The translations under genes and the position numbers were made by a program. Below the pieces are notes generated by a model. That model did no database searches. It was given only the letters and a program-made list of their open reading frames with translations, and was not told the origin of the DNA. Shown here piece after piece: positions 8,423 to 52,480 of a stretch of DNA of 64,000 nucleotides. The DNA is from Candidatus Enterousia sp. Lineage in GTDB: Bacteria > Pseudomonadota > Alphaproteobacteria > Rs-D84. The stretch lies in assembly GCA_045613445.1 (NCBI GenBank), contig JAZLAZ010000020.1:10433-74432 (forward strand), read 5' to 3'. Within the stretch, counting starts at the first letter, position 1, and each line of letters begins with the position of its first letter.

Positions 8423-9235
8423 ATGAATTGTATAGAAGAAGCTTTTTTAACATATTTTTATGAAAAGGGCGCTTTGGGTTGCTTGACTGATAACTTTGGT
8501 CGTTTTTCTCCATCGTATACTATTTCTAATGAACATCTAAGTGAAGCGATGGAAATATTAAAGCCGTCTGGCAAATCTGTTTTGACAGTAGCTGCCAGTG
8601 GTGACCAAGCTTTTTTTTACAAAATCAATGGCGCATCACATATTGATACATTTGATATTTCGTATTGTGCACAGGTTATGATGAATATAAAAACAGCGGC
8701 CGTGCAAACATTAGATTATACTGGTTATAAAGAGTTTATAAAATCAATCAAGTCTGCTAATACAGATATTATGTGTGTGCCTAAATTTCCAAAGATATCT
8801 GTTGCGTTGTCACAGGATGCCAAACGATTTTTAAATGCTGTGCGCGGGCAAAAATATCGTTTGGGTATTGGGACTAATTTTAATCCGATGACGGCGGCGC
8901 AATATAAAAAACTGCGTGCAGGTGTAAATGCGCCGTTTAATTTTATTTGGTCTGATGTAATGAGTTTGTCGGGGCATTTAACGCAGAAGTATGACCAGAT
9001 GTATATGTCTAATATTTTTCAGTATAATTGTGATAAAGATAAAAATGTTAAACTGATTCAAGATTTGTTGCCGTTCTTAAATGACGGCGGTGAAATAATG
9101 TTGTGTGTAACACCTTTCTTTAGAAGTTTTGAATTAGATGTTATGCGTAATGTGGCCAAGGACTTGGAAAAGTTTGTGCAGATACGTTTAGAGGCAACCA
9201 GACATCAACAATATGCGATTGTAAAGAAATTATAA
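8423..9235 (+). CDS. Hypothetical protein, possibly SAM-dependent methyltransferase-fold / DUF3419 (BtaA)-like
   Basis: 'VLTVAASGDQAFFYKINGASHIDTFDISYCAQVMMNIKTAA' resembles the nucleotide-binding start of DUF3419/class I MTase folds. This is recalled from memory, not searched. Start set at ATG 8423. Confidence 0.35.
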   Translation: MNCIEEAFLTYFYEKGALGCLTDNFGRFSPSYTISNEHLSEAMEILKPSGKSVLTVAASGDQAFFYKINGASHIDTFDISYCAQVMMNIKTAAVQTLDYTGYKEFIKSIKSANTDIMCVPKFPKISVALSQDAKRFLNAVRGQKYRLGIGTNFNPMTAAQYKKLRAGVNAPFNFIWSDVMSLSGHLTQKYDQMYMSNIFQYNCDKDKNVKLIQDLLPFLNDGGEIMLCVTPFFRSFELDVMRNVAKDLEKFVQIRLEATRHQQYAIVKKL

Positions 9236-10162
9236 TGCTTCTATATCGGTTATAATTTGGATGCCGTCTGATTCCCACTGTGGAATCAATGTTTCTATGT
9301 CCATAATGTTTGTTTCTGCTAAATATAATACAGGTGTAACATTATGTTGGGATGCAATTGTTTTTATAGTTGTTATTGGTGATGGTTTTGTCTTGCCGGT
9401 TGCGAACCAGTTTTCGTTATCAACGACCCAAAAGTCAGAATCATCGTGTGTTGCGATTGCGTGTGTTTTTGTAACGATGATGTCATCAATTATTTCGAAT
9501 TCTATGTTTTTGTTGTTTAAGTATTCTGTTATATATGATTTGGTTGTTTCTGGTTCGTTTGTGTCAAAATTAAAATCTGTAAATGTTGGTATGGTTTCTG
9601 AATCTGTTTGTGATTCTGGTTCAATGTCGAAATCAGTTGGTAATGGTAATGTTGTATCAGAAATATCACTGTTGTTATCTGTGTTTTGTGTGTTCAGTGG
9701 TTTTATCTTTATGTCTAATGGGTGATTTTTTGCGCGTATAAATGCAGCACGAATTTCTGGTGGAATATTCTCATTCTGTTCTGTTGTTTCGTCTTTTGTT
9801 TCGGACTTTGTTTCTGTGATGGGGTCAATAACAGGTGTTTCTGTCTTTTTTGACTTTATACAATCAGGTAGTTTTGGCAACGGAATTGTTATCAGTGGTT
9901 TTTTATTGCGAATGATCAACAGGCTGGTTGATATGTAAATTAGTGGTGCTGCAAATATTATTGTGCCAAAAACAAATCCGATAAATCCATGTAATCGGGA
10001 ATGTGTCAGGCGATGCCATTGTGATGTGTTGAAAATAGAAAAACCAAACATGTTGTACAATATTGCCCATAAAACAAATATGTAACATATTGTCCATATT
10101 ATGAAATATTTGTGTTCGGTTAAAGTTTTTAGTATTTTATTCATCAAAATTATTATAGACAA
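9230..10162 (-). CDS. Hypothetical membrane protein with an acidic Thr/Asp/Glu-rich linker
   Basis: There are 2-3 N-terminal hydrophobic helices (FIIWTICYIFVLWAILY, GFIGFVFGTIIFAAPLIYISTSLLII), an acidic low-complexity middle and a globular C-terminus. No recognisable motif. Confidence 0.5.
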   Translation of the reverse strand: MSIIILMNKILKTLTEHKYFIIWTICYIFVLWAILYNMFGFSIFNTSQWHRLTHSRLHGFIGFVFGTIIFAAPLIYISTSLLIIRNKKPLITIPLPKLPDCIKSKKTETPVIDPITETKSETKDETTEQNENIPPEIRAAFIRAKNHPLDIKIKPLNTQNTDNNSDISDTTLPLPTDFDIEPESQTDSETIPTFTDFNFDTNEPETTKSYITEYLNNKNIEFEIIDDIIVTKTHAIATHDDSDFWVVDNENWFATGKTKPSPITTIKTIASQHNVTPVLYLAETNIMDIETLIPQWESDGIQIITDIEAL

Positions 10163-10268: not shown

Positions 10269-12431
10269 ATGTCTAGGATTTTGAAAGTGTGTGGATTATC
10301 TGTTTTGTCAGCAGCGGTTTGTTTGTTGAATGTTGCTGCAAATGCGGCAACAGGACGCGCAGCATATGAAAATGTGCGCACTGGTTCGTTCACAGGGAAT
10401 GCAACATCAACTGCTCGTATGCCCAGTATGCCGACTTTGCCATTGATTGCAGTTGGTAATATTTCGACAGATGTGCCATCAAACCCAACCGATGGCGAAC
10501 CTTCACATGATGATGGGAATAATGGCGATGAAAATGGTAATCCGCCGGGACCGGATTTGCCTCCGACGGTTACTGTGCATGAATGTCCAGATGGTGGCGT
10601 CAAGAATTCTTCGTATACAGTTGATAATTGTATGCGTGATGTTTTGGCGTGTATCAATAATGGCGCGTTACCAAATGGATTAAATGATATGTTTAATTCT
10701 GATTTGCGTGCGTCAATTATCAATGGAATGGGGTTGTGCTATAACCAGGTTGATAAATGCATAACAGATGTCAGAAGAAATTGTAGCCGTGTATATAGTT
10801 CACGTGCAGATGTTTGGATTGACTTTAATTCACGCAAGGTTCAACCAGAATATTACAGCTTTGTATTGCGTAAAACTGGTTTAACACCGCGTCAGGCTGA
10901 AAATACATGTCTGTTATTAGATAAAAATGTTTATGGTAAATCGTTTGCTGCTGTTGGTGGTGAAACAAAGGTTACTGGTGAATATGACCAAAAAATTGGC
11001 GCATATAACCAACAGTTAAATAATTCGTTGGTAAAAGATAATCCAATGGGGCCGTATGAAAATAGACATGGTTATGTTGATTCACAACGTGGATATTATG
11101 CGCGTTGGGATGCGACCGCAGCAGAATGTTTAATCCGTGTCGCTGCGTATAATAAGGATAAACAAATTTCAAATAGTTGGTTGTTCGGCACAATTGGTGA
11201 TGATAGGCCTGCAGAAGTGTGGAAAGCTGCTGGTGACTCGTTCACATGTAACAAAGACTTGTTTGGTTTTTCTTTATTAAAAGATACAGAAACTGTTGCA
11301 TTGATTGGTGTTGGTGGTGGTACTGTTTTGGGTGCTGGTATTGGTGCTGCGGCGGGTGCAGGTGTCGCAAATAAAAATGCTAAGGCAGGTGAAGGTTGTG
11401 ACAATAAGGTGTTTCGTAATGATATGTTAAAGACTTTGCAACAATCCACAAATATGGAAGTTTTAAGTCGATTCTTGTCAGAGAGTATTAATAAAGCAAG
11501 TTCTGAAATGTCGAAACAGGTTTGTGAAGAAATTTTGAGATTACCAGATATATACGATGACTATGATATGTTAGTTTCTTTGTGTGAAAAAGGTAATGTA
11601 CAGAATTTGGATGTGTATTCTGTTGTTTGTGAAGGGGGTAAAGTCGAAGATTGTTTGCGTCAGCAGATAACAGAGCTTGGCAAGATTGAGTCTTCAGAAA
11701 TTGATGCGACGTTGTCACAATTGAAACCATGTGTTACAACCATTGATGCGGCCAAAGGGCAGTATGTGATTAAGGGCGACGGTACATGTGGTGAAATTAT
11801 GGCAGATGCTGGGTTTGAAAAAAAGCAAATGGGCGATTGTATGTTTAAAAATCCAGATAAACAGGCACAAAAATCAAATCGCGAAGATGTTCTTTGTTTT
11901 AGTGAAGGCGAATGTGTTGATCATATCAAGGCGCGTGAAAGTTTGAATATAATGGCAACTGTTTTGCCAACAATACAGTTAGAAATGCCAAAAACAGAAT
12001 CTCGTGGTGCAACAATTGGTAAGGGTGCTGCGATTGGTGCGGCCGTTGGTGCTGGTGCTGGTGGTTTGGCAACTGCGATTACTGCGTTGGTTGAACATGA
12101 TAATATCAACTGTCGTGTTGGTGATGGTTTGACTCAAGTAGGATTGAACAAATCGTATTCAATAGATGGTTTGAAAGATTTGTATGTAAAATGGAAATTA
12201 AATCTGCCAGATACACAGGTTATTGGTGGTGGTACGACTGTGAAAGACAAATCATCATGGGAAGATGCGTGTAAGACATATGTGTCCGAAGAAGCGTGTG
12301 AATCAGCAGAGTTCTATTACAAGAATGCAGTTGGTGCATTGGAATGGGTATATTCTGCATGTGAATATGATTCAGCTGGTGAGACATGTGACCCAAATGC
12401 AACATTATTGAAATCGTATGATGTTAAATAA
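10269..12431 (+). CDS. Secreted cysteine-rich protein with two glycine-zipper segments (divergent family member P2)
   Basis: ATG 10269 is preceded by AGGAGAGG. Signal peptide MSRILKVCGLSVLSAAVCLLNVAANA. Cx6C pairs are CMRDVLAC and CYNQVDKCITDVRRNC. Zippers are VALIGVGGGTVLGAGIGAAAGAGVA and GATIGKGAAIGAAVGAGAGGLATAI. Confidence 0.75.
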   Translation: MSRILKVCGLSVLSAAVCLLNVAANAATGRAAYENVRTGSFTGNATSTARMPSMPTLPLIAVGNISTDVPSNPTDGEPSHDDGNNGDENGNPPGPDLPPTVTVHECPDGGVKNSSYTVDNCMRDVLACINNGALPNGLNDMFNSDLRASIINGMGLCYNQVDKCITDVRRNCSRVYSSRADVWIDFNSRKVQPEYYSFVLRKTGLTPRQAENTCLLLDKNVYGKSFAAVGGETKVTGEYDQKIGAYNQQLNNSLVKDNPMGPYENRHGYVDSQRGYYARWDATAAECLIRVAAYNKDKQISNSWLFGTIGDDRPAEVWKAAGDSFTCNKDLFGFSLLKDTETVALIGVGGGTVLGAGIGAAAGAGVANKNAKAGEGCDNKVFRNDMLKTLQQSTNMEVLSRFLSESINKASSEMSKQVCEEILRLPDIYDDYDMLVSLCEKGNVQNLDVYSVVCEGGKVEDCLRQQITELGKIESSEIDATLSQLKPCVTTIDAAKGQYVIKGDGTCGEIMADAGFEKKQMGDCMFKNPDKQAQKSNREDVLCFSEGECVDHIKARESLNIMATVLPTIQLEMPKTESRGATIGKGAAIGAAVGAGAGGLATAITALVEHDNINCRVGDGLTQVGLNKSYSIDGLKDLYVKWKLNLPDTQVIGGGTTVKDKSSWEDACKTYVSEEACESAEFYYKNAVGALEWVYSACEYDSAGETCDPNATLLKSYDVK

Positions 12432-12458
12432 AAAATTCCCCCAGATGGGGGATTTTTT
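12431..12458 (+). terminator. Rho-independent terminator after P2
   Basis: AAAAAATTCCCCC-AGAT-GGGGGATTTTTT. Confidence 0.85.
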
Positions 12459-12495
12459 ATTGGTTTTTTTTTATATATTTGATATTTTCTAGATC

Positions 12496-13122
12496 ATGAA
12501 AAAAGATATTCCTGATTTTAATTTAGAAGTATTATCTGGATGTGATATTGTTGCAGGTGTAGATGAGGCAGGGCGTGGGCCATTGTGTGGACCGGTGGTG
12601 GCTGCTGCTGTGATATTCCCAGATCGGGATATTCACATTCCAATTGTTATTCGTGATTCAAAACAAATGTCTGCGCATCAACGCGCGGATGCGTATGAAT
12701 GGATTGTCAATAATACTGTGTGGGCTGTGGCAGAATGTAGTCCAACAGAAATTGATGAAATGAATATTTTGTGGGCTTCGATGTGTGCTATGAAACGTGC
12801 AGTTGATAAATTACAAATAAAACCACATTGTTGTTTAATTGATGGTAATCGTGTGCCAGATGGTATAAATGGACAATCTGTGGTCAAGGGTGATGCAAAG
12901 TCTTTATCAATTGCTGCAGCATCTATTATTGCAAAAGAAACACGTGATAAAATTATGCGTGATTTATCAAAAGAATTTCCGCAATATGGATGGGATAAAA
13001 ATGCGGGGTATCCAACAAAATCTCATTTACAGGCAATCGAAATATATGGTATAAATCAACATTATAGAAAAAGTTTTGGACCGGTTAAAGAAAGGATGAA
13101 AAATGAAAGTTCGCACGATTGA
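12496..13122 (+). CDS. rnhB: Ribonuclease HII
   Basis: 'VAGVDEAGRGPLCGPVVAAAV' is the catalytic motif. 208 aa. Confidence 0.93.
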   Translation: MKKDIPDFNLEVLSGCDIVAGVDEAGRGPLCGPVVAAAVIFPDRDIHIPIVIRDSKQMSAHQRADAYEWIVNNTVWAVAECSPTEIDEMNILWASMCAMKRAVDKLQIKPHCCLIDGNRVPDGINGQSVVKGDAKSLSIAAASIIAKETRDKIMRDLSKEFPQYGWDKNAGYPTKSHLQAIEIYGINQHYRKSFGPVKERMKNESSHD

Positions 13123-14272
13123 AAATGTAGAAGTTTGTGGAAAATTTGTATTGTTGCGTGATGACTTTAATGTACAAATAGTTGATGGAAAAATCACAGA
13201 CGCATTTCGTATTGAACAAAGTATGCCTACAATAAATGCATTGCGTGATGCAGGGGCTAAAATCGCAATTGTTGCACATCGTGGACGACCAAAGGGGCAG
13301 AGAAATTTGGAATACACATTACAACCAATTGCGGACTTTATGAATATTCCGTTGATTCCTGATTGTTTGGATAAAGAATTTATGAACTATATGCAAAATG
13401 GTGATGTTGTATTGTTGGAAAATGTTCGTTTTTACGATGGTGAAGAAAAAAACGATCCTGTATTTTCTGCAGAATTGGCACGTGGTTTTGACCTGTTTAT
13501 AAATGATGCGTTTGCAGTTTCGCATCGTGCACACGCAAGTACTGTGGGTGTTGCTGAAATTCTGCCATCGTATGCAGGTAAATTGTTGGCAAATGAAATT
13601 GAGCATTTAACTGATGTTATGGAAAATCCAAAACGCCCATTGTTGTCCATTGTTGCAGGAAGTAAGGTTTCAACAAAGATAGGTGTTTTGAAGGCATTGG
13701 CAAAATTATCAGATACAATGATTATTGGTGGTGCATTGGGGACAACATTTAATTATGCAATGGGAGGGCAGGTTGGAAATTCGTTGTATGAAGCAGATCA
13801 AAAAGATACTGCATTGGAAATACTGAAATATGCCAAAGAAAATAATTGTGATATCTTGTTGCCATTAGACAAGGGTGTTGCCAAGGAATTCGCACGTGAT
13901 GCACAAAGATTTAACAAAGATTTTACACAAATTGAACCAGATGATGTAATTATTGATGCAGGTGTTGCGACAACAGAACGTGATACAAATGCGATTCGTT
14001 CTGCGCGAACTGTTATTTGGAATGGTACTGTTGGTATGGCTGAATGGATGCCAACTTGGTCATATGGTTCATTTGCATTGGCAAATACGATTGCAGAACA
14101 AACACGTGCAGGAAAATTGGATAGTATTATTGGTGGTGGTGATACAGTTGCTGCGTTGGAAGCTTGTGGTGTCAAGGATGATATTACATATGTTTCTACG
14201 GGTGGTGGGGCGTTTTTGGAATTTATCGAAGGTCGTGTTTTGCCAGGTATTGCAATACTGGAATATAAATAA
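13103..14272 (+). CDS. pgk: Phosphoglycerate kinase
   Basis: 'IAIVAHRGRPKG', 'LLENVRFYDGEEKND' and 'STGGGAFLEFIEG' are Pgk motifs. Overlaps rnhB by 20 nt. Confidence 0.96.
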   Translation: MKVRTIENVEVCGKFVLLRDDFNVQIVDGKITDAFRIEQSMPTINALRDAGAKIAIVAHRGRPKGQRNLEYTLQPIADFMNIPLIPDCLDKEFMNYMQNGDVVLLENVRFYDGEEKNDPVFSAELARGFDLFINDAFAVSHRAHASTVGVAEILPSYAGKLLANEIEHLTDVMENPKRPLLSIVAGSKVSTKIGVLKALAKLSDTMIIGGALGTTFNYAMGGQVGNSLYEADQKDTALEILKYAKENNCDILLPLDKGVAKEFARDAQRFNKDFTQIEPDDVIIDAGVATTERDTNAIRSARTVIWNGTVGMAEWMPTWSYGSFALANTIAEQTRAGKLDSIIGGGDTVAALEACGVKDDITYVSTGGGAFLEFIEGRVLPGIAILEYK

Positions 14273-14298
14273 AAATCCCCAAACGGGGATTTTTTATT
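14212..14298 (+). repeat. 87-bp direct repeat, copy 1 (last 19 codons of pgk, stop codon and terminator)
   Basis: Matches 15851-15937 at 84 of 87 positions by manual alignment. Confidence 0.9.
14271..14296. terminator. Bidirectional terminator (AAAAATCCCC-AAAC-GGGGATTTTTT) between pgk and the inserted gene
   Basis: Perfect stem flanked by an A-run and a T-run, between convergent genes. Confidence 0.85.
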
Positions 14299-15791
14299 CA
14301 TCTTGAATATTGTTGTTGTGGAACCGAATTGTTGTTTGTTATGCGCGTCAGTGACATTTTCTGAACAGATACATCATCGTATTGCTTTTGTAGTGACAAG
14401 TCAATGCGATCATATACATTTTTTGGTGCAAAATTAGATTTGTTCATAATGTCTGTATATGAAATTTTGTGTGGTAGTGTCAATGTCATAATTGGCACGT
14501 TTATATGATTGTTGATAATTTTTTGACATTGATTATCTGCATTTATTTGCAGTTCTTTTAATAGTTTTAATATTTTGGGTGGAATAGTATTGTTTTTTGA
14601 TTTAGAAAATTTTATCTTTTCCATAAACTCCATAATTTCTTTGCGTGTTTCGGTGTTCATATATACATTCGCAAAGTATGGATCGAATAATTCAATTTCA
14701 GGATGTGTAAGTAATAATTTATTTAATTTGATTTCTTGTTCTGGTGTTAGTTTGTTTGTTCGGGCGATAGTTTGTATTTCAATGGCATCAATGTAGTCAA
14801 TGTATATGCTGTGAATAGTGCTATTCCCATAAATACGTTTTTTTAGATTTAGTGGATTTAACATATATGTTAGATAAGCTTGGTTGTAAATTTTGGCCAG
14901 TGTTATTCGTGTAAAAATGTTGTCGTATTGATTTATTACAAAATCATGTGGTTTTTTTATGCTGATTTCTGTGTCCAGTACAGAATTTGCTGTGATGCGT
15001 GAATTGTATTTTTCAACCAAGGGAACTAATGTGTTCATGGAGGTAAGATACAATTCTTTGTTATTTGTTTGTTCATTATATTCGCGAATTATTTTTGCAG
15101 TTGTTAAAAATATGTCAGAATATAATTTTACAAGTTTTGGATTATTTTGATGCTGAATAACAAATTCAATAATATTTACAATACATTTTTTGTATTCTTG
15201 GTTTTTTCCAATTTGTGTTATGTCACTGGTGGCAACATGTAGCGCCTTGGTCATAATAAGTTCTGGATTTTTTAATCGGTTAAAATATTTCCCATCAATA
15301 ATAAATCTGAATGCGTCATATTCTGGCATGTCAGATGCGCGTTTGTTTGCAGCCGTTATAATAATGTCTGATTTGTTAGTAATGTTTAATTTATTTTGTA
15401 ATTCAGGTGTAATACTGTTTGCTAAATAATTCGCATGATGCATAGATAGACGCATTTGTTCATACATTTTATCTGGGTGATCTATTTTATTTAATAAATC
15501 AATCAACTGATTGATGTTGTACTTTTCTGGGGTCGCGTTATATGTTTTTATAATATGATCGTGCACTGTTTTGATTTCTGATTCAGAAATAGAATCATTT
15601 ACAGCGCGACGGATAGAATCTGCCTGAGCATCGAAAAAATCGATGGTACTTTTGGGAATTTGAGTAATTTTGCTAAAATCGGTGATTTGTTTTTGTTGTG
15701 GTATAGAATCTGTTGTGTTGGTATCTGTGGCACGTGCTGATGGTGATAGACCCAGAAAGGTTAGCGGTAATAAAAACTTTTTGATATTCAT
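14298..15791 (-). CDS. Hypothetical secreted protein (Asn/Lys/Ile-rich), cargo of the pgk-flanked insertion
   Basis: Start set at ATG 15791, giving the signal peptide MNIKKFLLPLTFLGLSPSARA. No recognisable domains. Confidence 0.6.
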   Translation of the reverse strand: MNIKKFLLPLTFLGLSPSARATDTNTTDSIPQQKQITDFSKITQIPKSTIDFFDAQADSIRRAVNDSISESEIKTVHDHIIKTYNATPEKYNINQLIDLLNKIDHPDKMYEQMRLSMHHANYLANSITPELQNKLNITNKSDIIITAANKRASDMPEYDAFRFIIDGKYFNRLKNPELIMTKALHVATSDITQIGKNQEYKKCIVNIIEFVIQHQNNPKLVKLYSDIFLTTAKIIREYNEQTNNKELYLTSMNTLVPLVEKYNSRITANSVLDTEISIKKPHDFVINQYDNIFTRITLAKIYNQAYLTYMLNPLNLKKRIYGNSTIHSIYIDYIDAIEIQTIARTNKLTPEQEIKLNKLLLTHPEIELFDPYFANVYMNTETRKEIMEFMEKIKFSKSKNNTIPPKILKLLKELQINADNQCQKIINNHINVPIMTLTLPHKISYTDIMNKSNFAPKNVYDRIDLSLQKQYDDVSVQKMSLTRITNNNSVPQQQYSR

Positions 15792-15850
15792 AATGGCTAT
15801 TGTAACACATAAAATGTGTTTTGTCAAACATGTTCCTTGTTGTTTAGGAT
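14299..15850. mobile_element. Inserted segment bounded by the 87-bp pgk-3' direct repeats; carries one AT-rich gene
   Basis: It lies exactly between repeat copies 14212-14298 and 15851-15937. By eye it is more AT-rich and Asn/Lys/Ile-rich than its flanks. No recombinase gene inside. Confidence 0.55.
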
Positions 15851-15851
15851 G

Positions 15852-15911
15852 TTTTTTGAATTTATCGAAGGTCGTGTTTTATCAGGTATTGCAATACTGG
15901 AATATAAATAA
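15852..15911 (+). pseudogene. Orphan 3'-terminal fragment of pgk (19 codons plus stop)
   Basis: It translates to FFEFIEGRVLSGIAILEYK*, against FLEFIEGRVLPGIAILEYK* at the true pgk end. There is no upstream pgk body. Confidence 0.8.
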
Positions 15912-15936
15912 AAATCCCCAAACGGGGATTTTTTAT
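15910..15936. terminator. Bidirectional terminator (duplicate of the pgk terminator) serving the minus-strand gene 15933-16310
   Basis: AAAAATCCCC-AAAC-GGGGATTTTTT. Confidence 0.8.
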
Positions 15937-16310
15937 TTTGTTTTATTGTATTGGCATCTTCTGCATATGTTTAATCCGTGCAACATTGCAGCATGTTCGC
16001 TGACATGTGTGCCAGGGGTGTGCATGTCACCAATCTTGACCCAGAATTGTTTTTTAGGATCGCATGTAATACGACACTTTTCCGCGCAGCCATTACAATG
16101 AATGTCTGATTTTAATTCAAATGTTTTCTTGCCAGATGTCTGGGTGTCATAGTGTGTACACAATTTACACAGATTTAATCCGAAATCATATGTGTTGTCA
16201 TTTACAGAACAGTGCACCTGTGTTTCACCAATAACAAGATAACCAAATGACAATGCATAGATGTCACAATTTTGATTGCAACCATTACAATGTGCGCCAA
16301 GTTTATACAT
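15933..16310 (-). CDS. Small cysteine-rich cytoplasmic protein, putative metal-binding (possibly DUF3795-like)
   Basis: 125 aa with CNGCNQNC, CKLC, CNGCAEKCRITC and CRRC clusters and no signal peptide. The family call is from memory only. Confidence 0.4.
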   Translation of the reverse strand: MYKLGAHCNGCNQNCDIYALSFGYLVIGETQVHCSVNDNTYDFGLNLCKLCTHYDTQTSGKKTFELKSDIHCNGCAEKCRITCDPKKQFWVKIGDMHTPGTHVSEHAAMLHGLNICRRCQYNKTK

Positions 16311-16355
16311 GCTATATCCCTTTTGTTTTCAGGGAATATAGCATGTCGTAGCTAG

Positions 16356-17432
16356 TTAGTCAATCTTTACAGAAAATATTGTTTGTTGCTTTTCTGTATC
16401 CAATGGATGGTATTGAAATTGGACTGTTGCAAAATCTATGTTCTTCATATCAATACTGCGAATCGTTCGATTGTACATTGTGTGGTAATAGATAATCTTG
16501 TTTTTAAGGTCTGTTGCAATCGTCCATTGTGTTGCTGCAGGCATATCTGTTGGGGATTTCCCAACCGCGTATTCGACACCAGATGGAATATCAACGTTGT
16601 TCAAGATGTGAAATGCTTGTTCAACCGATTTTTCGCCTGTGTCTTGTTCCAGTGCAAATGTTTTTAAGAATGCTGCGCGAACAAATCGTGATGGTGGGGT
16701 AAAGTCGCCGGGTAATCCGCGCAGACCAGAACCAGAACCAAATGCGTGTAATGTAATTGGACCAAATTGTGTGGGGCCGGCAGTGCCTGGATGCAGATTT
16801 ACATAATTATTCAAATTTGTCATATGCCATGGAAATCCTGGAGAATTAGTCAGAACACCAATTTCGTTTTCATAAAAGTTTGGGCGGCCGTCAACTATTT
16901 CTAAGACAACTTGGCGACCATTTGGTTCTGTTATGCGCCAGTGTACAGTTGATGCGGTTGGATCAATGTTTATGATGCGAACATCGTTGATTGCGGCTTT
17001 GACCTGGTCAATGGTTGAAAATCGTGACAATATCCATGAAACAACTTGGAAATCTGCCAGTGATATATCTTTGCTTTTTTCATTGTATTCTTGGTATTCG
17101 CCATAGTTCGGGAAATAGAACAGGGCAGCCGATAAACCCGCTTCATTTGTGCCATCAACAACAAATTCTGGCTGTTCAACAGCGATTCCGGCATAACCAT
17201 ACAATGATATAAAGTTTAAACCGTCCATTGTTCCGTCTGGTAACAGTGATTGATTATGATGACCGCGTGGGACGATGGTGTACAGATTGTTCATTTCGGA
17301 TCCCGACCAATCAACAGTGCGTGCGACAACAGTTGCGTTGTCTTTTGATTTTAATGTTATGCCGGTGCATGCGCTGGCATTTTGTATTAGTGCGATACAG
17401 ATGCTTAGTGTTGCGATAAATAAATTTTTCAT
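16356..17432 (-). CDS. Exported choloylglycine hydrolase family protein (bile salt hydrolase / penicillin V acylase-type Ntn hydrolase)
   Basis: The signal peptide MKNLFIATLSICIALIQNASA is followed directly by the nucleophile Cys in 'CTGITLKSKDNATVVARTVDW'. A perfect AAGGAGG SD lies upstream of ATG 17432. Confidence 0.8.
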   Translation of the reverse strand: MKNLFIATLSICIALIQNASACTGITLKSKDNATVVARTVDWSGSEMNNLYTIVPRGHHNQSLLPDGTMDGLNFISLYGYAGIAVEQPEFVVDGTNEAGLSAALFYFPNYGEYQEYNEKSKDISLADFQVVSWILSRFSTIDQVKAAINDVRIINIDPTASTVHWRITEPNGRQVVLEIVDGRPNFYENEIGVLTNSPGFPWHMTNLNNYVNLHPGTAGPTQFGPITLHAFGSGSGLRGLPGDFTPPSRFVRAAFLKTFALEQDTGEKSVEQAFHILNNVDIPSGVEYAVGKSPTDMPAATQWTIATDLKNKIIYYHTMYNRTIRSIDMKNIDFATVQFQYHPLDTEKQQTIFSVKID

Positions 17433-17499
17433 AGTTGTGTCCTCCTTGATATAAATTATCTATATTTTTAAGGAGTTTGCACTAGGGATGTATTGCTAA

Positions 17500-18036
17500 T
17501 TACATTGACAGTAATGGTTGCCAGATTTTTAGTATCTCGTTATAGTCTGCGTACATTTCAAGAAATTCAATCGTAGAATATATTATTTCTAGTTGTTTTT
17601 GTGACCATTTGTATTTGTCGTTATAACGCAGTTTTTTTTCAAACCATTGTGATACGGTTAAATCATTTGGGTCTTTGTGCGTTAGGTATCTTTGTTCAAA
17701 GTTAGCACTGAACCAATCACATATCATTTCAATCAATGTTATGTTGCTGATTTCTGATGCGTTTGAATAGTAGTTTATATGGTGTGGTTGTGTGGCATGA
17801 TGTTCATCACTCATCGTTCTGAATAGTTCGCAATATTTTTCGGGAATATTATATTCAGGATGATAACTAGCATAATTTATATACGAGTATGCAATCATCA
17901 TTGGGCCAGAATTTTTATCGTTATCATGTTCTGGGAAATGGTAACCTAAGAGTCCTGCATGATAATTCAGGCAATTGATATGTGCCTGGGTTCGGATAAA
18001 ATGAAATTTGTTGATAGTTTCGATTGGGATCTGCAT
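17500..18036 (-). CDS. Hypothetical protein with His-rich motifs (HDNDK, DEHHATQPHHINYY), possibly DUF5662-like
   Basis: Start set at ATG 18036, because the longer ORF to 18120 would overlap the tRNA gene. The His/Asp pattern resembles a phage-associated family as I recall it. Weak. Confidence 0.4.
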   Translation of the reverse strand: MQIPIETINKFHFIRTQAHINCLNYHAGLLGYHFPEHDNDKNSGPMMIAYSYINYASYHPEYNIPEKYCELFRTMSDEHHATQPHHINYYSNASEISNITLIEMICDWFSANFEQRYLTHKDPNDLTVSQWFEKKLRYNDKYKWSQKQLEIIYSTIEFLEMYADYNEILKIWQPLLSM

Positions 18037-18112
18037 GGAATATATTATATCATAAGCATTAAAATATTTTAATTGCAAAATGAAAATAAGAAGCGTATAA
18101 TATGCGTCGCAT

Positions 18113-18186
18113 TGGGGCATAGTTTAATGGTAGAACTCCGGACTCTGACTCCGTCAGTGTTGGTTCGAATCCAGCTGCCCCAACCA
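18113..18186 (+). tRNA. tRNA-Gln (anticodon CUG)
   Basis: Manual cloverleaf: acceptor TGGGGCA/TGCCCCA, D-arm GTTT-AATGGTA-GAAC, anticodon arm CCGGA-CTCTGAC-TCCGT (U33, CUG, A37), T-arm GTTGG-TTCGAAT-CCAGC, encoded ACCA. One C:U mismatch at the top of the anticodon stem. Confidence 0.85.
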
Positions 18187-18191
18187 AAATT

Positions 18192-18220
18192 CAAACGCCC
18201 CGTGTGGGCGTTTTAATTTT
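18192..18220 (+). terminator. Terminator after tRNA-Gln
   Basis: ACGCCC-CGTGT-GGGCGT followed by TTTTAATTTTT. Confidence 0.7.
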
Positions 18221-18226
18221 TGGTTA

Positions 18227-18324
18227 TGGGGTAATGAGATGAGAACCAACAGTTCGAGCCGTAGGCGAAAGGGGCCCATAGAGCGAAAGCGAATATGGGA
18301 ATTACAATCCAGCTGCCCCAACCA
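18227..18324 (+). other. tRNA-like element or decayed tRNA-Gln copy whose ends can form the tRNA-Gln acceptor stem
   Basis: 5' TGGGGTA (18227-18233) pairs with 3' TGCCCCA (18314-18320), followed by ACCA. The 80-nt interior does not fold as a cloverleaf and contains GAAA-loop mini-hairpins. Confidence 0.3.
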
Positions 18325-18325
18325 A
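18306..18325 (+). repeat. Perfect 20-bp direct copy of the tRNA-Gln 3' end (att-like)
   Basis: AATCCAGCTGCCCCAACCAA at 18168-18187 and again at 18306-18325. Flanking bases are also similar. Confidence 0.9.
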
Positions 18326-18329
18326 GATA

Positions 18330-18448
18330 GACAAACCCGTCGATAAAGGCGGGTTTTTGTTTGGTTTCTAATGTTTCCAGTGAGTTCGAAAGTTAAATTT
18401 TGAAAAATGGCAAAAAAAATTATCATTTTCGAACTTTTGTGGTATAAT
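18330..18448 (+). repeat. Module A, copy 1 (hairpin, operator-like inverted repeat and promoter)
   Basis: Aligns with 19851-19967 at roughly 85-90% by eye, with a 2-nt indel. The first 65 nt differ at only 2 positions. Confidence 0.85.
18420..18448 (+). promoter_or_regulatory. Cassette promoter 1: TTATCA-N17-(TGG)TATAAT with the TTTCGAACT half-operator in the spacer
   Basis: The -35 is at 18420-18425 and the extended -10 TGGTATAAT ends at 18448. AGTTCGAAA (18383-18391) is the exact inverted partner of TTTCGAACT (18427-18435). Confidence 0.6.
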
Positions 18449-18455
18449 ATTTTGT

Positions 18456-19568
18456 ATGAAAACAGAGAGTTATAATAAAGCCATAGATAAAGTTCATGCA
18501 CTTGTTGGTGAATCTGTAACTAAACAGATACCTACATTGGATCATGTTATGGATGTTGAGCATATGTCCGAATCAGATAAAATCTGGTATGAAGCATATA
18601 AAAAATATGGGAATCGTAATCATACATGGCAAGATTTTAAAGATATGTTTTATGGTGATATGCAAACCATGCAAAAAACGGTTGTAAACTGGAAAACTTG
18701 GGATGAAATAAATGATTTATTATCCCAATCCGATGTTTTAAGAACAGAAGTGCGAAAATTACTAGGAAAATACGATATACGTTCTATTAGCGAAGAAAAA
18801 ATAGAAGAATATGCACGTATAAAAAAAGAACACCCCGATTTAGTAGCGATTTATGAAAAATATCTGGCTGTTGATGATTTAACACATGCAAATTATTCTA
18901 CATTTAATCCACAAGTTGCGAAACTGGAAAAAGAATTTGAAATAAAATCAAAAGCTATAAACCCTGATGATAAAAAATCAAAAATAGATTTAATTGTAGA
19001 ATATATAAAAAAAATGGACGAATATGTTGATTTAAAAAACGGTGATTTTGTGCTTGGCGAACGTATAGAAATGTACAGAAAAATTATATTGAAAGATTCA
19101 ACAATTTTAATGATGATACAAAATTTTGATAATTTATCTGGTGCAGAAAAGGTTGATTTGGCGCGTATGATTTTAAATAAAAGTGCAAAAATTACAGGCA
19201 CACCAACAGGAAGAGTGATCCACGATGATGCTACTGATGGACCACATGTATTAAGAGAAAATCAAGGCGCTGGATACAATAAAAAAGGTGAAAGATTTTT
19301 ATTTCGTGGGGATGTGTCTAATTTTTCTAAATTATGGAACTTTTTGAAAACACTGGCACATGAAGATGCGCACAGAATTGATTATTATAATGCAGAATAT
19401 GGTATGATTGGGACTCAACTTATGCAATTTGTAGAAAATAATTATCTGAATAATTCAGATATTGATGAAGAATTATATCGTAAATTTGCTACCGAGCAAA
19501 GTTCTTACTATCTTGATAAAACAATCGGGTCTGCATTGAAATACGAAATAGAACACCAAAATTCATAA
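18456..19568 (+). CDS. Hypothetical protein with an HExxH zinc-metallopeptidase-like motif (cassette 1 cargo)
   Basis: 370 aa, no signal peptide, 'LAHEDAHRIDYYN' near the C-terminus. Otherwise unrecognised. Confidence 0.55.
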   Translation: MKTESYNKAIDKVHALVGESVTKQIPTLDHVMDVEHMSESDKIWYEAYKKYGNRNHTWQDFKDMFYGDMQTMQKTVVNWKTWDEINDLLSQSDVLRTEVRKLLGKYDIRSISEEKIEEYARIKKEHPDLVAIYEKYLAVDDLTHANYSTFNPQVAKLEKEFEIKSKAINPDDKKSKIDLIVEYIKKMDEYVDLKNGDFVLGERIEMYRKIILKDSTILMMIQNFDNLSGAEKVDLARMILNKSAKITGTPTGRVIHDDATDGPHVLRENQGAGYNKKGERFLFRGDVSNFSKLWNFLKTLAHEDAHRIDYYNAEYGMIGTQLMQFVENNYLNNSDIDEELYRKFATEQSSYYLDKTIGSALKYEIEHQNS

Positions 19569-19697: not shown

Positions 19698-19850
19698 TAT
19701 TCGGGGTGGCTGGATCGGTCAGAGTGTCAACGGCACGCACGACCAATACGAGAATAGACAATTAAAAAAATCTTCAAAAATCGACCAAGGGAGATTTTTT
19801 TGATTTTTATTATTGTATATCGAGGCACCCAGCTGCGACCGATCAAGATT

Positions 19851-19967
19851 GACAAACACGTCGATAAAGGCGGGTTTTTGTTTGGTTTCTAATGTTTCCA
19901 GCGAGTTCGAAAGTTGAGTTTTAGAAAACATCAAAAAATTGTCATTTTCGAACTTTTGTGGTATAAT
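19851..19967 (+). repeat. Module A, copy 2
   Basis: See copy 1. Preceded at 19828-19850 by CCCAGCTGCGACCGATCAAGATT, a degenerate version of the tRNA-Gln 3' end. Confidence 0.85.
19939..19967 (+). promoter_or_regulatory. Cassette promoter 2: TTGTCA-N17-(TGG)TATAAT
   Basis: The -35 is at 19939-19944 and TATAAT at 19962-19967. It has the same TTTCGAACT spacer element and upstream AGTTCGAAA partner. Confidence 0.6.
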
Positions 19968-19994
19968 TCTGTAGAAAAAAATAAAGGTCATAAC

Positions 19995-51700: not shown

Positions 51701-52480
51701 TTCAGCGGGTTGCAAAATCCGATTATGGGATTGGTATCAAACGCAATTGTATCAGATGTTGCGTATAATATTGGTAATTTGACATTTGGTGGTCATGTCT
51801 TTTCTGGGGTGATAACGGATGAAGGTTTGTTGGAAAATGATCCGACGATTTCTGCGCAATATATGCCTGCAAAATTGGGGTTGATGGACGGTGTGGATTC
51901 TTTTGTTGCGTGGAACAATAATGATTTTCGTTTAAAAACATCGTTTGGTATCGCAAATGAAACAGATACTTTGTTGGGGGCATATACAGATGGTTTATTA
52001 AATCTGGGGGCAGGTAAGACAATGTACACAGATATAGAAGCCCAGTATAAATTAAATGCAAATATAGATGTTATTGCGCGTGCCACATTTGCCAAGACAT
52101 CGTCTGATGCAACAGGTAATTTTATCTTGGGGTTGTCTGATGTTTATTCAAATGCGTTTGCGTTTGGGGCAAATATAGGTAATTTTGAATTTAGTGTTTC
52201 GCAGCCATTGGCAATAAATAGTGGGTCGATGAAATATGCATACGCAAAATACGAAGTTGATGCAGATTCAAATCTGAATATTGTTGATACTTATATTGCA
52301 GATTTGTCGTTAAAGACAGATGTTCGTGAAACAAGATTTATGGGAACTTATCGTCATAAGTTTGGTGAATTTACAGATGGTGCGTTTGGATTCATATATC
52401 GTATAAATCCAAATCATACTGATGAATTTGGAAATGAATCTATATTTATGATGAAAATAAATCATCGTTTGGGAATATAG
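48794..52480 (+). CDS. Ankyrin-repeat-headed autotransporter with a degenerate (probably inactive) S8 subtilase-like domain
   Basis: Signal peptide MKFIRILLFSLFFVPVASFA. Ankyrin-like 'LLAAAKNADIQQVQSLVNAGADVNFVDSTGLSIVCTALMNNDVRAAQILQMYGADAS'. Collinear with the S8 autotransporter at 21318-23150, but 'GTSFAAP' becomes 'ATASAAG' and 'VFDSG' becomes 'LVTANG'. Confidence 0.65.
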   Translation: MKFIRILLFSLFFVPVASFASSSEFMMAAQLLAAAKNADIQQVQSLVNAGADVNFVDSTGLSIVCTALMNNDVRAAQILQMYGADASRCDSQIKKFNNRTKPKPSGGLFSGLSSAQSLTLTAAGAAVVVGGLFLLTDVFDPGNDNESSGNGGNRPNNNPNNNGGAVGGGNLALSVPYSPAYLAPDGKITTDDAVYQANLKLWDPSGNNVRTWDFNYFRPTVQTANNYLVDGIDVPVQNYLLMMHGYSAFANDYLGQEIFRDTTTHNPVPVSNKTGGGKPVAVALVTANGLNPTGSATRGDGILYAATAAADSVTALVDKYINYGNPNKVSGVLGTEISGFDLSGSGTAMNPFASAYQNSLGKIVAGWYGTTNDLTDADVRGYGDFFGFVPNGRLGIYRTGNGKQWGDVDTPTSGAVVGTVTDADANLALNSGDTIVLNGVTYNLKLALDETTLTNPTVTIGDTTYKLDENSKMLIGQCVGTDCSDIAIYQGLDNFYYVNTTGGDTVDSVYVLNNNNLYVQKELQDADFATFQALNKAWASGAGVVANVNLIDASRNSNYKTIADMPAYIATSSQADDQDFIGLINSVYEGNNADVKTQGAYANEMFYNYSASSPIMVMPAGEFVWNNGSVLDATFENYAPVLYGNNVADNFMTVVAVQHSSDNGTSSANSIGAYGNGTGADYGPLYLSMYSKDDVLYSSRKCGVAGTGVGTIDPWCFAAAGATAEMATASAAGAVASLQGAFDYMSNSQVYQLLALTADGYLLGTDASGVAFNQETLATYLKTMYALPPEYYADSLTPDKYLEAFAETYGYGLINLERAMTPGKSIYFFDGNEIVSADGNAYWRAASNTVFRPSAALNLSGVSISAPFFDVVESVDGKMSLPRVWENEFAFDSTDVHGLYMGDVLGDLKTTRDNQQVIKVGNLNFSMAVSERAYEDYMGGLDSLRLSYSSGNLDLGASYQRYLTNGTSRFSGLQNPIMGLVSNAIVSDVAYNIGNLTFGGHVFSGVITDEGLLENDPTISAQYMPAKLGLMDGVDSFVAWNNNDFRLKTSFGIANETDTLLGAYTDGLLNLGAGKTMYTDIEAQYKLNANIDVIARATFAKTSSDATGNFILGLSDVYSNAFAFGANIGNFEFSVSQPLAINSGSMKYAYAKYEVDADSNLNIVDTYIADLSLKTDVRETRFMGTYRHKFGEFTDGAFGFIYRINPNHTDEFGNESIFMMKINHRLGI

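Follow-up and report, generated by a model that had tools for sequence, protein, structure and literature searches.

A duplicated pgk tail and terminator in a rearranging gene cluster of Candidatus Enterousia, most likely not a mobile-element footprint

The 3' end of a central-metabolism gene can be duplicated around an insert that leaves the gene itself intact: phage 21 and e14 integrate in icd of E. coli, and ICESt1/ICESt3 and CIMEs at the 3' end of fda in Streptococcus thermophilus. Elements of this type encode or need a tyrosine integrase, reuse the same att site and bring a substitute gene end that differs synonymously from the orphan. A tandem duplication followed by partial deletion likewise leaves a short duplicated piece behind. 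Insertion with long target duplication, as defined by Nobusato et al. (2000) and cited in Furuta, Abe and Kobayashi (2010; PMC2853133), is a third source of such repeats: the cases described there have direct repeats of 46-420 bp around restriction-modification cargo foreign to the site, and are defined by an empty single-copy target in a relative. A fourth comes from homology-facilitated illegitimate recombination and C-terminal displacement arrays (de Vries and Wackernagel, 2002; Prudhomme et al., 2002; rhs/type VI secretion system [T6SS] orphan arrays), discussed in PMC5361080. Here, we examine a window of 64,000 nucleotides (C20:10433-74432) from G000, a metagenome-assembled genome of Candidatus Enterousia from the gut (0.96 Mb, 27 contigs), in which an 87-nt direct repeat of the pgk 3' end and its terminator flanks a single gene, ORF498. 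The second copy, an orphan pgk tail, is most likely not the attachment site or footprint of a mobile element. We give about an even chance to its being a scar of host recombination that was anchored in the terminator and sealed by one illegitimate junction at 15850/15851.

The repeat occupies 14212-14298 and 15851-15937, both on the plus strand, and is the top direct-repeat family of the region. Its copies agree at 84 of 87 positions, differing at repeat positions 7, 31 and 32, and the longest exact direct repeat found in 12000-18000 measures 55 nt, where 200 shuffles reached 17 nt at most and 12.5 nt on average. Copy 1 holds the last 19 codons of pgk, the stop codon and a terminator, and pgk is intact (13103..14272, plus strand, 389 aa; PF00162 1-379/379, E 1.4e-120). 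Copy 2 comprises the orphan tail (15851-15911), which has no start codon and translates as FFEFIEGRVLSGIAILEYK*, followed by a second terminator. The sole open reading frame (ORF) between the copies is ORF498 (14298..15794, minus strand, 498 aa from its ATG), whose stop codon (14298-14300) abuts the terminator of copy 1. Its predicted promoter, TTGACA-17 nt-TG-TACAAT (15799..15827, minus strand), is the best promoter-like site in 13000-17600, with 11/12 matches, and 79 nt separate it from the terminator of copy 2: the 57-nt pgk tail and a 22-nt spacer, CATGTTCCTTGTTGTTTAGGAT (15829..15850), whose right end is the novel junction at 15850/15851. The original prediction for this DNA, made from the letters alone, had described an 87-bp repeat with three mismatches carrying the pgk tail and terminator, an orphan tail as its second copy, one secreted-looking gene on the opposite strand between the copies, a length too great for a transposase target duplication and no remaining integrase; each of these descriptions is right.

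The spacer is unique in the window and in the genome, and is otherwise found only in same-species strains. The first six nucleotides of the repeat (GTTTTT), ahead of its first mismatch, could be microhomology at the junction. Two candidate sources of the spacer were rejected: its similarity to the CBAH terminator of a related contig, L031, is not significant (734/2000 shuffles), and the CATCCT that it shares with the spacer of another species, G153, is too short a match to count.

Both terminators are predicted on both strands, at 14271..14294, between the convergent pgk and ORF498, and at 15910..15933, where the second copy would serve a gene for a Cys-rich protein. Their hairpin, AAAAATCCCC-AAAC-GGGGATTTTT, has the GC stem-loop, the A- and T-tracts and the convergent-gene setting expected of a bidirectional intrinsic terminator. 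The stop codon of the Cys-rich gene (15933-15935) falls in the T-tract of copy 2, and the end of this gene shows the same stop-codon and terminator arrangement in relatives where pgk is not adjacent. Hairpins of this kind are common: G000 has 23 terminators with the stem AAATCCCC-loop-GGGGATTT and 12 different loops, and the terminator part of the repeat gives 28 BLAST hits in the genome. Only the 57-nt pgk-coding part is strictly two-copy, the terminator part being of a genome-wide type, so that the pgk-coding part alone is diagnostic of copying. Concerted evolution of the two terminators was considered and found unconvincing, as the loop common to both copies, or its inverse, recurs in 5 of the 23.

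The duplication is carried by all three same-species strains compared, L030 (JGI 3300041726), L101 (ENA ERZ27297762) and L102 (Logan SRR12711146). Both repeat copies are present in L030, which is 99.2% identical to the window over 4186 nt, and on the 32-kb contig L101 (~98% identical), and the L102 contig spans the orphan tail through the terminator of copy 1. Three changes specific to the orphan (L>F, P>S and a silent one) are common to all strains; two of these hit conserved residues, and none is present in the pgk of any relative compared. L030 and L101, two of the three strains, have one extra private change each in the orphan. The functional pgk-coding tail is invariant across the three strains, L101 having one A fewer in the A-run that precedes the terminator stem of copy 1, and the Pgk protein is identical in the strain contigs L030/L054, L055 and L056. 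From the shared and private changes together it follows that the duplication predates the common ancestor of the strains and that the orphan is decaying. The two copies were evidently identical at first, and by its pattern of change the orphan is non-coding sequence in neutral decay. Because all three differences are derived in the orphan and two are non-conservative, they speak for the decay of a once-identical copy and not for a substitute end of the phage 21/e14 type.

ORF498 has no match in Pfam, NCBIfam or PHROG, and its AlphaFold2 model, all-helical with a pLDDT of 80.8, has no PDB fold match at E<=0.001. Its N-terminus is signal-peptide-like and conserved among homologues (MxxKKxLLPLTFLGLSPxARA); the model and the sequence suggest a helical protein, apparently secreted, whose family is unassigned. 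The homologues form eight clusters, all on Enterousia-type contigs, and fall into types A (498-514 aa, identity 50-66%) and B (486-487 aa, identity ~40%), which are paralogous. ORF498 is of type A. In the gene orders below, A and B stand for these paralogous secreted-protein genes, T for the terminator, cys for the Cys-rich gene and CBAH for the choloylglycine-hydrolase gene. A/B genes are present in only 8 of the 256 species representatives that make up our genus comparison set, which includes the species of the window (255 others). A chimera of A and B, which would explain the loss of B by recombination between paralogs, was tried and rejected, ORF498 being A-type in every 40-column alignment window.

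The same pgk-CBAH interval houses A/B genes in six other Enterousia species (G144, G128, G170, G153, G087 and G200), and the pgk-CBAH(-DUF5662-tRNA-Gln) interval does so in many metagenome contigs. Because these homologues sit in the same interval, ORF498 is not foreign to its site. The promoter of ORF498 is likewise homologous to the promoter module that precedes A/B genes in relatives. None of the relatives bearing A/B at this interval has the pgk duplication. Their gene orders are diverse: CBAH>A>B>T<pgk in G144/L031, L044-47 and L050-53; CBAH>A>B>T<DUF805<DUF1015<pgk in G128; CBAH>A>B>cys>T<DUF805<DUF1015<pgk in G170 and L048/49; CBAH>cys>B>T<DUF1015<pgk in G153 and ten contigs, L057-66; and CBAH>B>T<pgk in G087. 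At least six other lineages have neither A nor B and a single terminator copy at this place, with the order CBAH>cys>T<DUF1015(<DUF805)<pgk in L105, L106, L107, L109 and L038/39. The window reads CBAH>cys>[T, orphan tail, 22 nt, promoter]>A>T<pgk, with cys standing between CBAH and the A/B gene as it does in G153 and the L057 group. In the G000 assembly, which is ~95% complete, B, DUF1015 and DUF805 are absent throughout, the last two without any tblastn hit. A pgk tree unites these lineages in one clade (12 rows, support 100/99) with an unresolved interior, in which L106, lacking B, clusters with G153 and L057, which have it; A identities (66, 54 and 50%) rank in the same order as CBAH identities. 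DUF1015 and DUF805, where they adjoin pgk in relatives, are 96-98% conserved.

A 153-nt probe of the pgk end finds pgk in 211 of the 256 species and a second copy only in G000: an orphan pgk tail is present in none of the 255 other species, at a sensitivity limited below ~80% identity. The pgk tail with its terminator is single-copy in all of them, and relatives without A/B have DUF1015, with or without DUF805, between pgk and that terminator. Seven recurrent 28-nt second hits to the pgk tail were rejected as orphans, since they reflect a similar peptide motif in rnc (RNase III), lepB (signal peptidase) and a tRNA-synthetase gene. Across the 256 species, and as far as their sequences can tell, the event is unique in the genus.

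The terminators recur where the pgk tail does not. Every A/B-bearing relative has a terminator on either side of the A/B unit. The two are the same hairpin in L044/G128, G153, L057 and the window, and a different hairpin stands on the CBAH side in G144/L031, G087 and L048/G170. The upstream copy in relatives is usually fused straight to the -35 element (GGGGATTTTTTGACAAAAC). Directly in front of the terminator-promoter module of A, L044/G128 retain roughly 12 nt from the 3' end of cys. Judging by these gene orders, the terminator is a recurrent breakpoint of the pgk-CBAH gene cluster. This cys-tail relic (ATAAACAAAAT), present in relatives without the Cys-rich gene, lies at L044:990-1030 and L078:2240-2280 and is a second small gene-tail relic at the locus. 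The terminator-promoter fusion was also considered as a widespread cassette module and rejected, an exact copy being found in only one other species representative and once more in G000.

Recombination also reaches the right flank of the cluster. CBAH has a nucleotide identity of 95.4% to its counterpart in G144 and 98.6% to that in L037, against 80-86% for pgk (~84%), rnhB and Cys-rich genes, and identity falls sharply at the border between CBAH and cys. Within the species, CBAH is the most divergent gene, at 97.8% against 99.3-99.7% for the others. CBAH thus looks like a case of recent exchange between species and, because its identity is far above that of its neighbors, the locus appears to be recombinationally active, with foreign alleles entering the neighborhood. 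The two pgk tails, however, show no donor-type divergence.

We therefore favor, at about the even chance stated above, a host-recombination scar over a trace of mobility. This reading is reminiscent of homology-facilitated illegitimate recombination and displacement arrays, with which the locus shares orphan 3' pieces of a conserved gene downstream and the lack of a dedicated recombinase, and would share one homologous end and one illegitimate junction. The published arrays (PMC5361080), however, leave functional toxin tips and immunity genes stranded and carry divergence derived from donors, whereas the orphan here is 19 codons of a housekeeping gene that were initially identical to the functional copy. 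Because of that initial identity, an intragenomic origin is at least as likely. In the history that we envisage, the pgk-CBAH interval of the subclade held a variable set of genes (cys, A, B, DUF1015 and DUF805) in a cluster that was continually rearranged. In the stem lineage of the species the cluster would have been reduced by the loss of B, DUF1015 and DUF805, and A would have come to end at the pgk terminator. An event anchored in this terminator would then have placed a copy of it, together with the neighboring 57 nt of pgk, beyond A, between the promoter of A and the end of the Cys-rich gene, and an illegitimate junction at 15850/15851 would have sealed the event's other end. Two routes seem the most likely, either of which would yield the structure. 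One is a tandem duplication of 1.64 kb (14212-15850), later trimmed by a terminator-to-terminator deletion; the other is a one-ended ectopic conversion between the two terminators. As in a tandem-duplication remnant, the end of a segment runs into its own start at the junction 15850/15851; unlike a plain remnant of this kind, no intermediate with two A genes is seen and the 22-nt spacer is left over. Afterward, selection would have held the pgk tail, the second terminator would have been kept for the Cys-rich gene, and the 57-nt orphan would have decayed neutrally.

Several points weigh against this history. Of the possible intermediates, a tandem duplicate or an orphan-less cys>T.P>A>T<pgk, neither was found among the sequences compared. 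The spacer of 22 nt (15829-15850) is unaccounted for, in a setting where most relatives fuse the terminator straight to the -35 element. The ancestral place of A at this locus rests on parsimony and on A/B-type orthology within a clade whose interior the pgk tree leaves open, and the order of events rests on parsimony as well; A could have moved among lineages by transfer. The loop shared by the two terminators is weak evidence for copying, since it, or its inverse, is found in 5 of the 23 terminators. Finally, A adjoins pgk only in this species, B, DUF1015 or DUF805 being the neighbor elsewhere, and because that adjacency is unique to the species at least one further deletion must be assumed.

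An integrase-free insertion with long target duplication is the main alternative to the scar, possible but doubtful. Here, a conspecific fragment or circle made up of the pgk tail, the terminator, A, its promoter and the 22 nt would have entered an A-less pgk>T<cys<CBAH ancestor by one of two routes, RecA-type (Campbell) recombination across the 87-nt homology or homology-facilitated illegitimate recombination with its anchor in pgk or CBAH, and its entry would have duplicated the tail and terminator around A. Direct repeats of more than 30 bp, a small insert and no mobility gene in or beside it match the class of Nobusato et al. (2000) and Furuta et al. (2010; PMC2853133), whose cases share with our locus a small gene unit, overlong direct repeats, the lack of a transposase or integrase and an intact flanking gene. 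Some relatives without A/B do have just one terminator separating the Cys-rich gene from the pgk operon, A/B genes are patchy (8/256), and the CBAH exchange indicates that foreign DNA reaches the locus. The insert is not new to its place, however: unlike the cargo of the published cases, it has same-locus homologues in related species, the six named above. Nor was an empty site found. The original prediction had a foreign element entering an empty site composed of pgk, the terminator and the Cys-rich gene; that order, pgk>T<cys, is in no genome or contig examined, all three strains are filled, and homologues occupy the same interval in six species without any duplication of pgk. Exact-protein look-ups for an empty site in the same species returned only filled contigs or contigs ending at the repeat, and a JGI pattern scan, from which near-identical records are probably missing since even the known JGI contig did not come up, gave no hit. 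One of the contigs ending at the repeat, L055 from ENA (99.8% identical), stops precisely where copy 1 does, at 14298; a branch to another continuation, as this alternative would have it, could lie behind this, and equally an unresolved repeat in a low-coverage assembly. The near-identity of the tails would further require a donor of the same species that had the A>T<pgk adjacency, otherwise unseen, and the insertion takes more steps than a local event (loss of A, loss of cys in the donor, and rejoining). An arrangement that is fixed, with no empty-site alleles, is what the original prediction itself had named as counting against its reading, and the reading of an inserted element is weakened by it. 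Of the Campbell-type or site-specific integration that it proposed, Campbell recombination across the repeat still stands as one possible route, and a foreign circular or site-specific element is unsupported.

Alternatively, A and B may be cassettes that move without a recombinase, each promoter-bearing gene entering and leaving by host homologous recombination between copies of the terminator hairpin, of which the genome has 23. The 87-nt repeat would then be the footprint of a circle that was excised imprecisely, with 57 nt of pgk serving as a longer address, and that went back in at the pgk terminator. We regard this joint proposal as unlikely. If true, it would make terminators generic docking sites for gene shuffling in tiny genomes.

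Site-specific integration is more improbable still. By this account, a small element, or what remains of a larger one, would have taken the 3' end of pgk for its attB and brought a substitute end in its attP, with an integrase since lost or acting in trans. The formal anatomy does fit, with direct repeats like attL and attR that restore the target gene, and as with the icd and fda elements the 3' end of a central-metabolism gene is duplicated, the gene is intact and an orphan end lies beyond the insert. Two kilobases away, tRNA-Gln is followed by repeated tRNA-tail modules that flank single genes, and recombinase genes exist elsewhere in G000 and beside DUF5662 in L058. Unlike those elements, the locus has no integrase, no recurrent use of an att site and no synonymous-type difference in the presumed substitute end. 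No recombinase gene is present within the insert of 1.55 kb (14299-15850) or on contig C20, PF00589 hits being confined to C7 and C12 and serine recombinases to C7. In relatives without any att duplication, the cargo gene belongs to this very locus. The original prediction had the element carry a substitute pgk end; the orphan differs instead by decay-type changes, and none of the 255 other species has an orphan tail. Large serine recombinases, for their part, leave only a short shared core and not 87 nt.

A chimeric or duplicated join of strain variants, the assembly artefact about which the original prediction had worried, is almost certainly not the explanation: G000 is in 27 contigs and some contigs from other samples do break at the repeat, but L030, L101 and L102 come from different samples, differ by 0.8-2% and share the structure, the orphan bears strain-specific substitutions, and the assembly k exceeds the length of the repeat, because G000 contigs overlap by 141 nt against 87.

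On its own, the orphan tail is a small, fixed rearrangement scar of a known kind in an uncultured gut alphaproteobacterium. It is also a clean case, documented in several strains, in which the tail and terminator of a housekeeping gene were duplicated next to a fast-evolving gene for a secreted protein, with mobility genes absent from the vicinity. At the level of the locus, more than 12 related lineages have different gene orders, all broken at terminators. Taken with similar cases elsewhere, this suggests that, in reduced genomes, genes are preferentially gained, lost and reshuffled at breakpoints in the bidirectional terminators that separate convergent genes. The case also shows that relatives should be checked before a gene tail duplicated on both sides of a gene is taken for an integrase footprint.

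The variable interval lies between conserved flanks. To its left, rnhB (RNase HII; 12496..13122, plus strand, from the ORF list) overlaps the start of pgk, and the adjacency of the two genes is kept in all genus relatives examined, the genes after pgk differing by species. In L055, the first 68 nt cannot be aligned upstream of rnhB (window 12445-12512), which suggests that the intergenic region between big776 and rnhB may be another strain-variable point. To the right, the Cys-rich gene (15933..16310, minus strand) encodes a protein of 125 aa with several CxxC pairs and no signal peptide, and has no family match in Pfam, NCBIfam or PHROG; it follows CBAH in at least 10 related lineages. CBAH (16356..17432, minus strand), of the choloylglycine-hydrolase family (PF02275, E 1e-66), forms the conserved right flank of the interval. 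It is followed by a syntenic DUF5662 gene (17500..18120, minus strand; PF18907) and by tRNA-Gln (18113..18186, plus strand; ARAGORN; Rfam 64.5 bits), the outer right border of the variable region. In L058, a large serine recombinase of 501 aa (Resolvase, Recombinase and Zn_ribbon_recom domains; L058:2604-4109) stands between DUF5662 and the tRNA-Gln side, and G000 has two large serine recombinase genes at C7:19379-22314.

We also describe repeated elements associated with tRNA genes. A conserved element of about 100 nt (GAGATGAGAACC...GTTCGAGCCGNAGGCGAAAGGG.CCCATAGAG.GAAAGCGAATATGGGAATTACAATCC...) follows tRNA-gene terminators and ends in a copy of a tRNA 3' end. It lies at 18216-18330 in the window and at C20:142400-142505, C2:22392-22547 (minus strand) and C1:23854-23929 in G000, has no Rfam match, and several of its copies are at contig ends. 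A module of 155 nt, composed of an orphan tRNA-Gln tail, a terminator and a promoter, is present at 18309-18462 and 19829-19978 of the window in copies 86% identical. It precedes ORF370 and a GNAT-like gene, and strain L101 lacks these cassettes or has them rearranged. Elsewhere in G000, C12:8236-12963 contains a weak paralog of the Cys-rich gene. The terminator at the end of this paralog is found again as part of a 48-nt repeat (8622-8669 and 9857-9904) around a 323-aa ORF, and a 340-aa ORF at 11941-12963 of the same contig has a P4-integrase-like N-terminus and a weak PF00589 hit. At C16:49204-49290 and 52089-52175, a promoter and the 5' part of a tRNA are duplicated (88 nt, 85%) around three small minus-strand ORFs, the second copy lying at a contig end.

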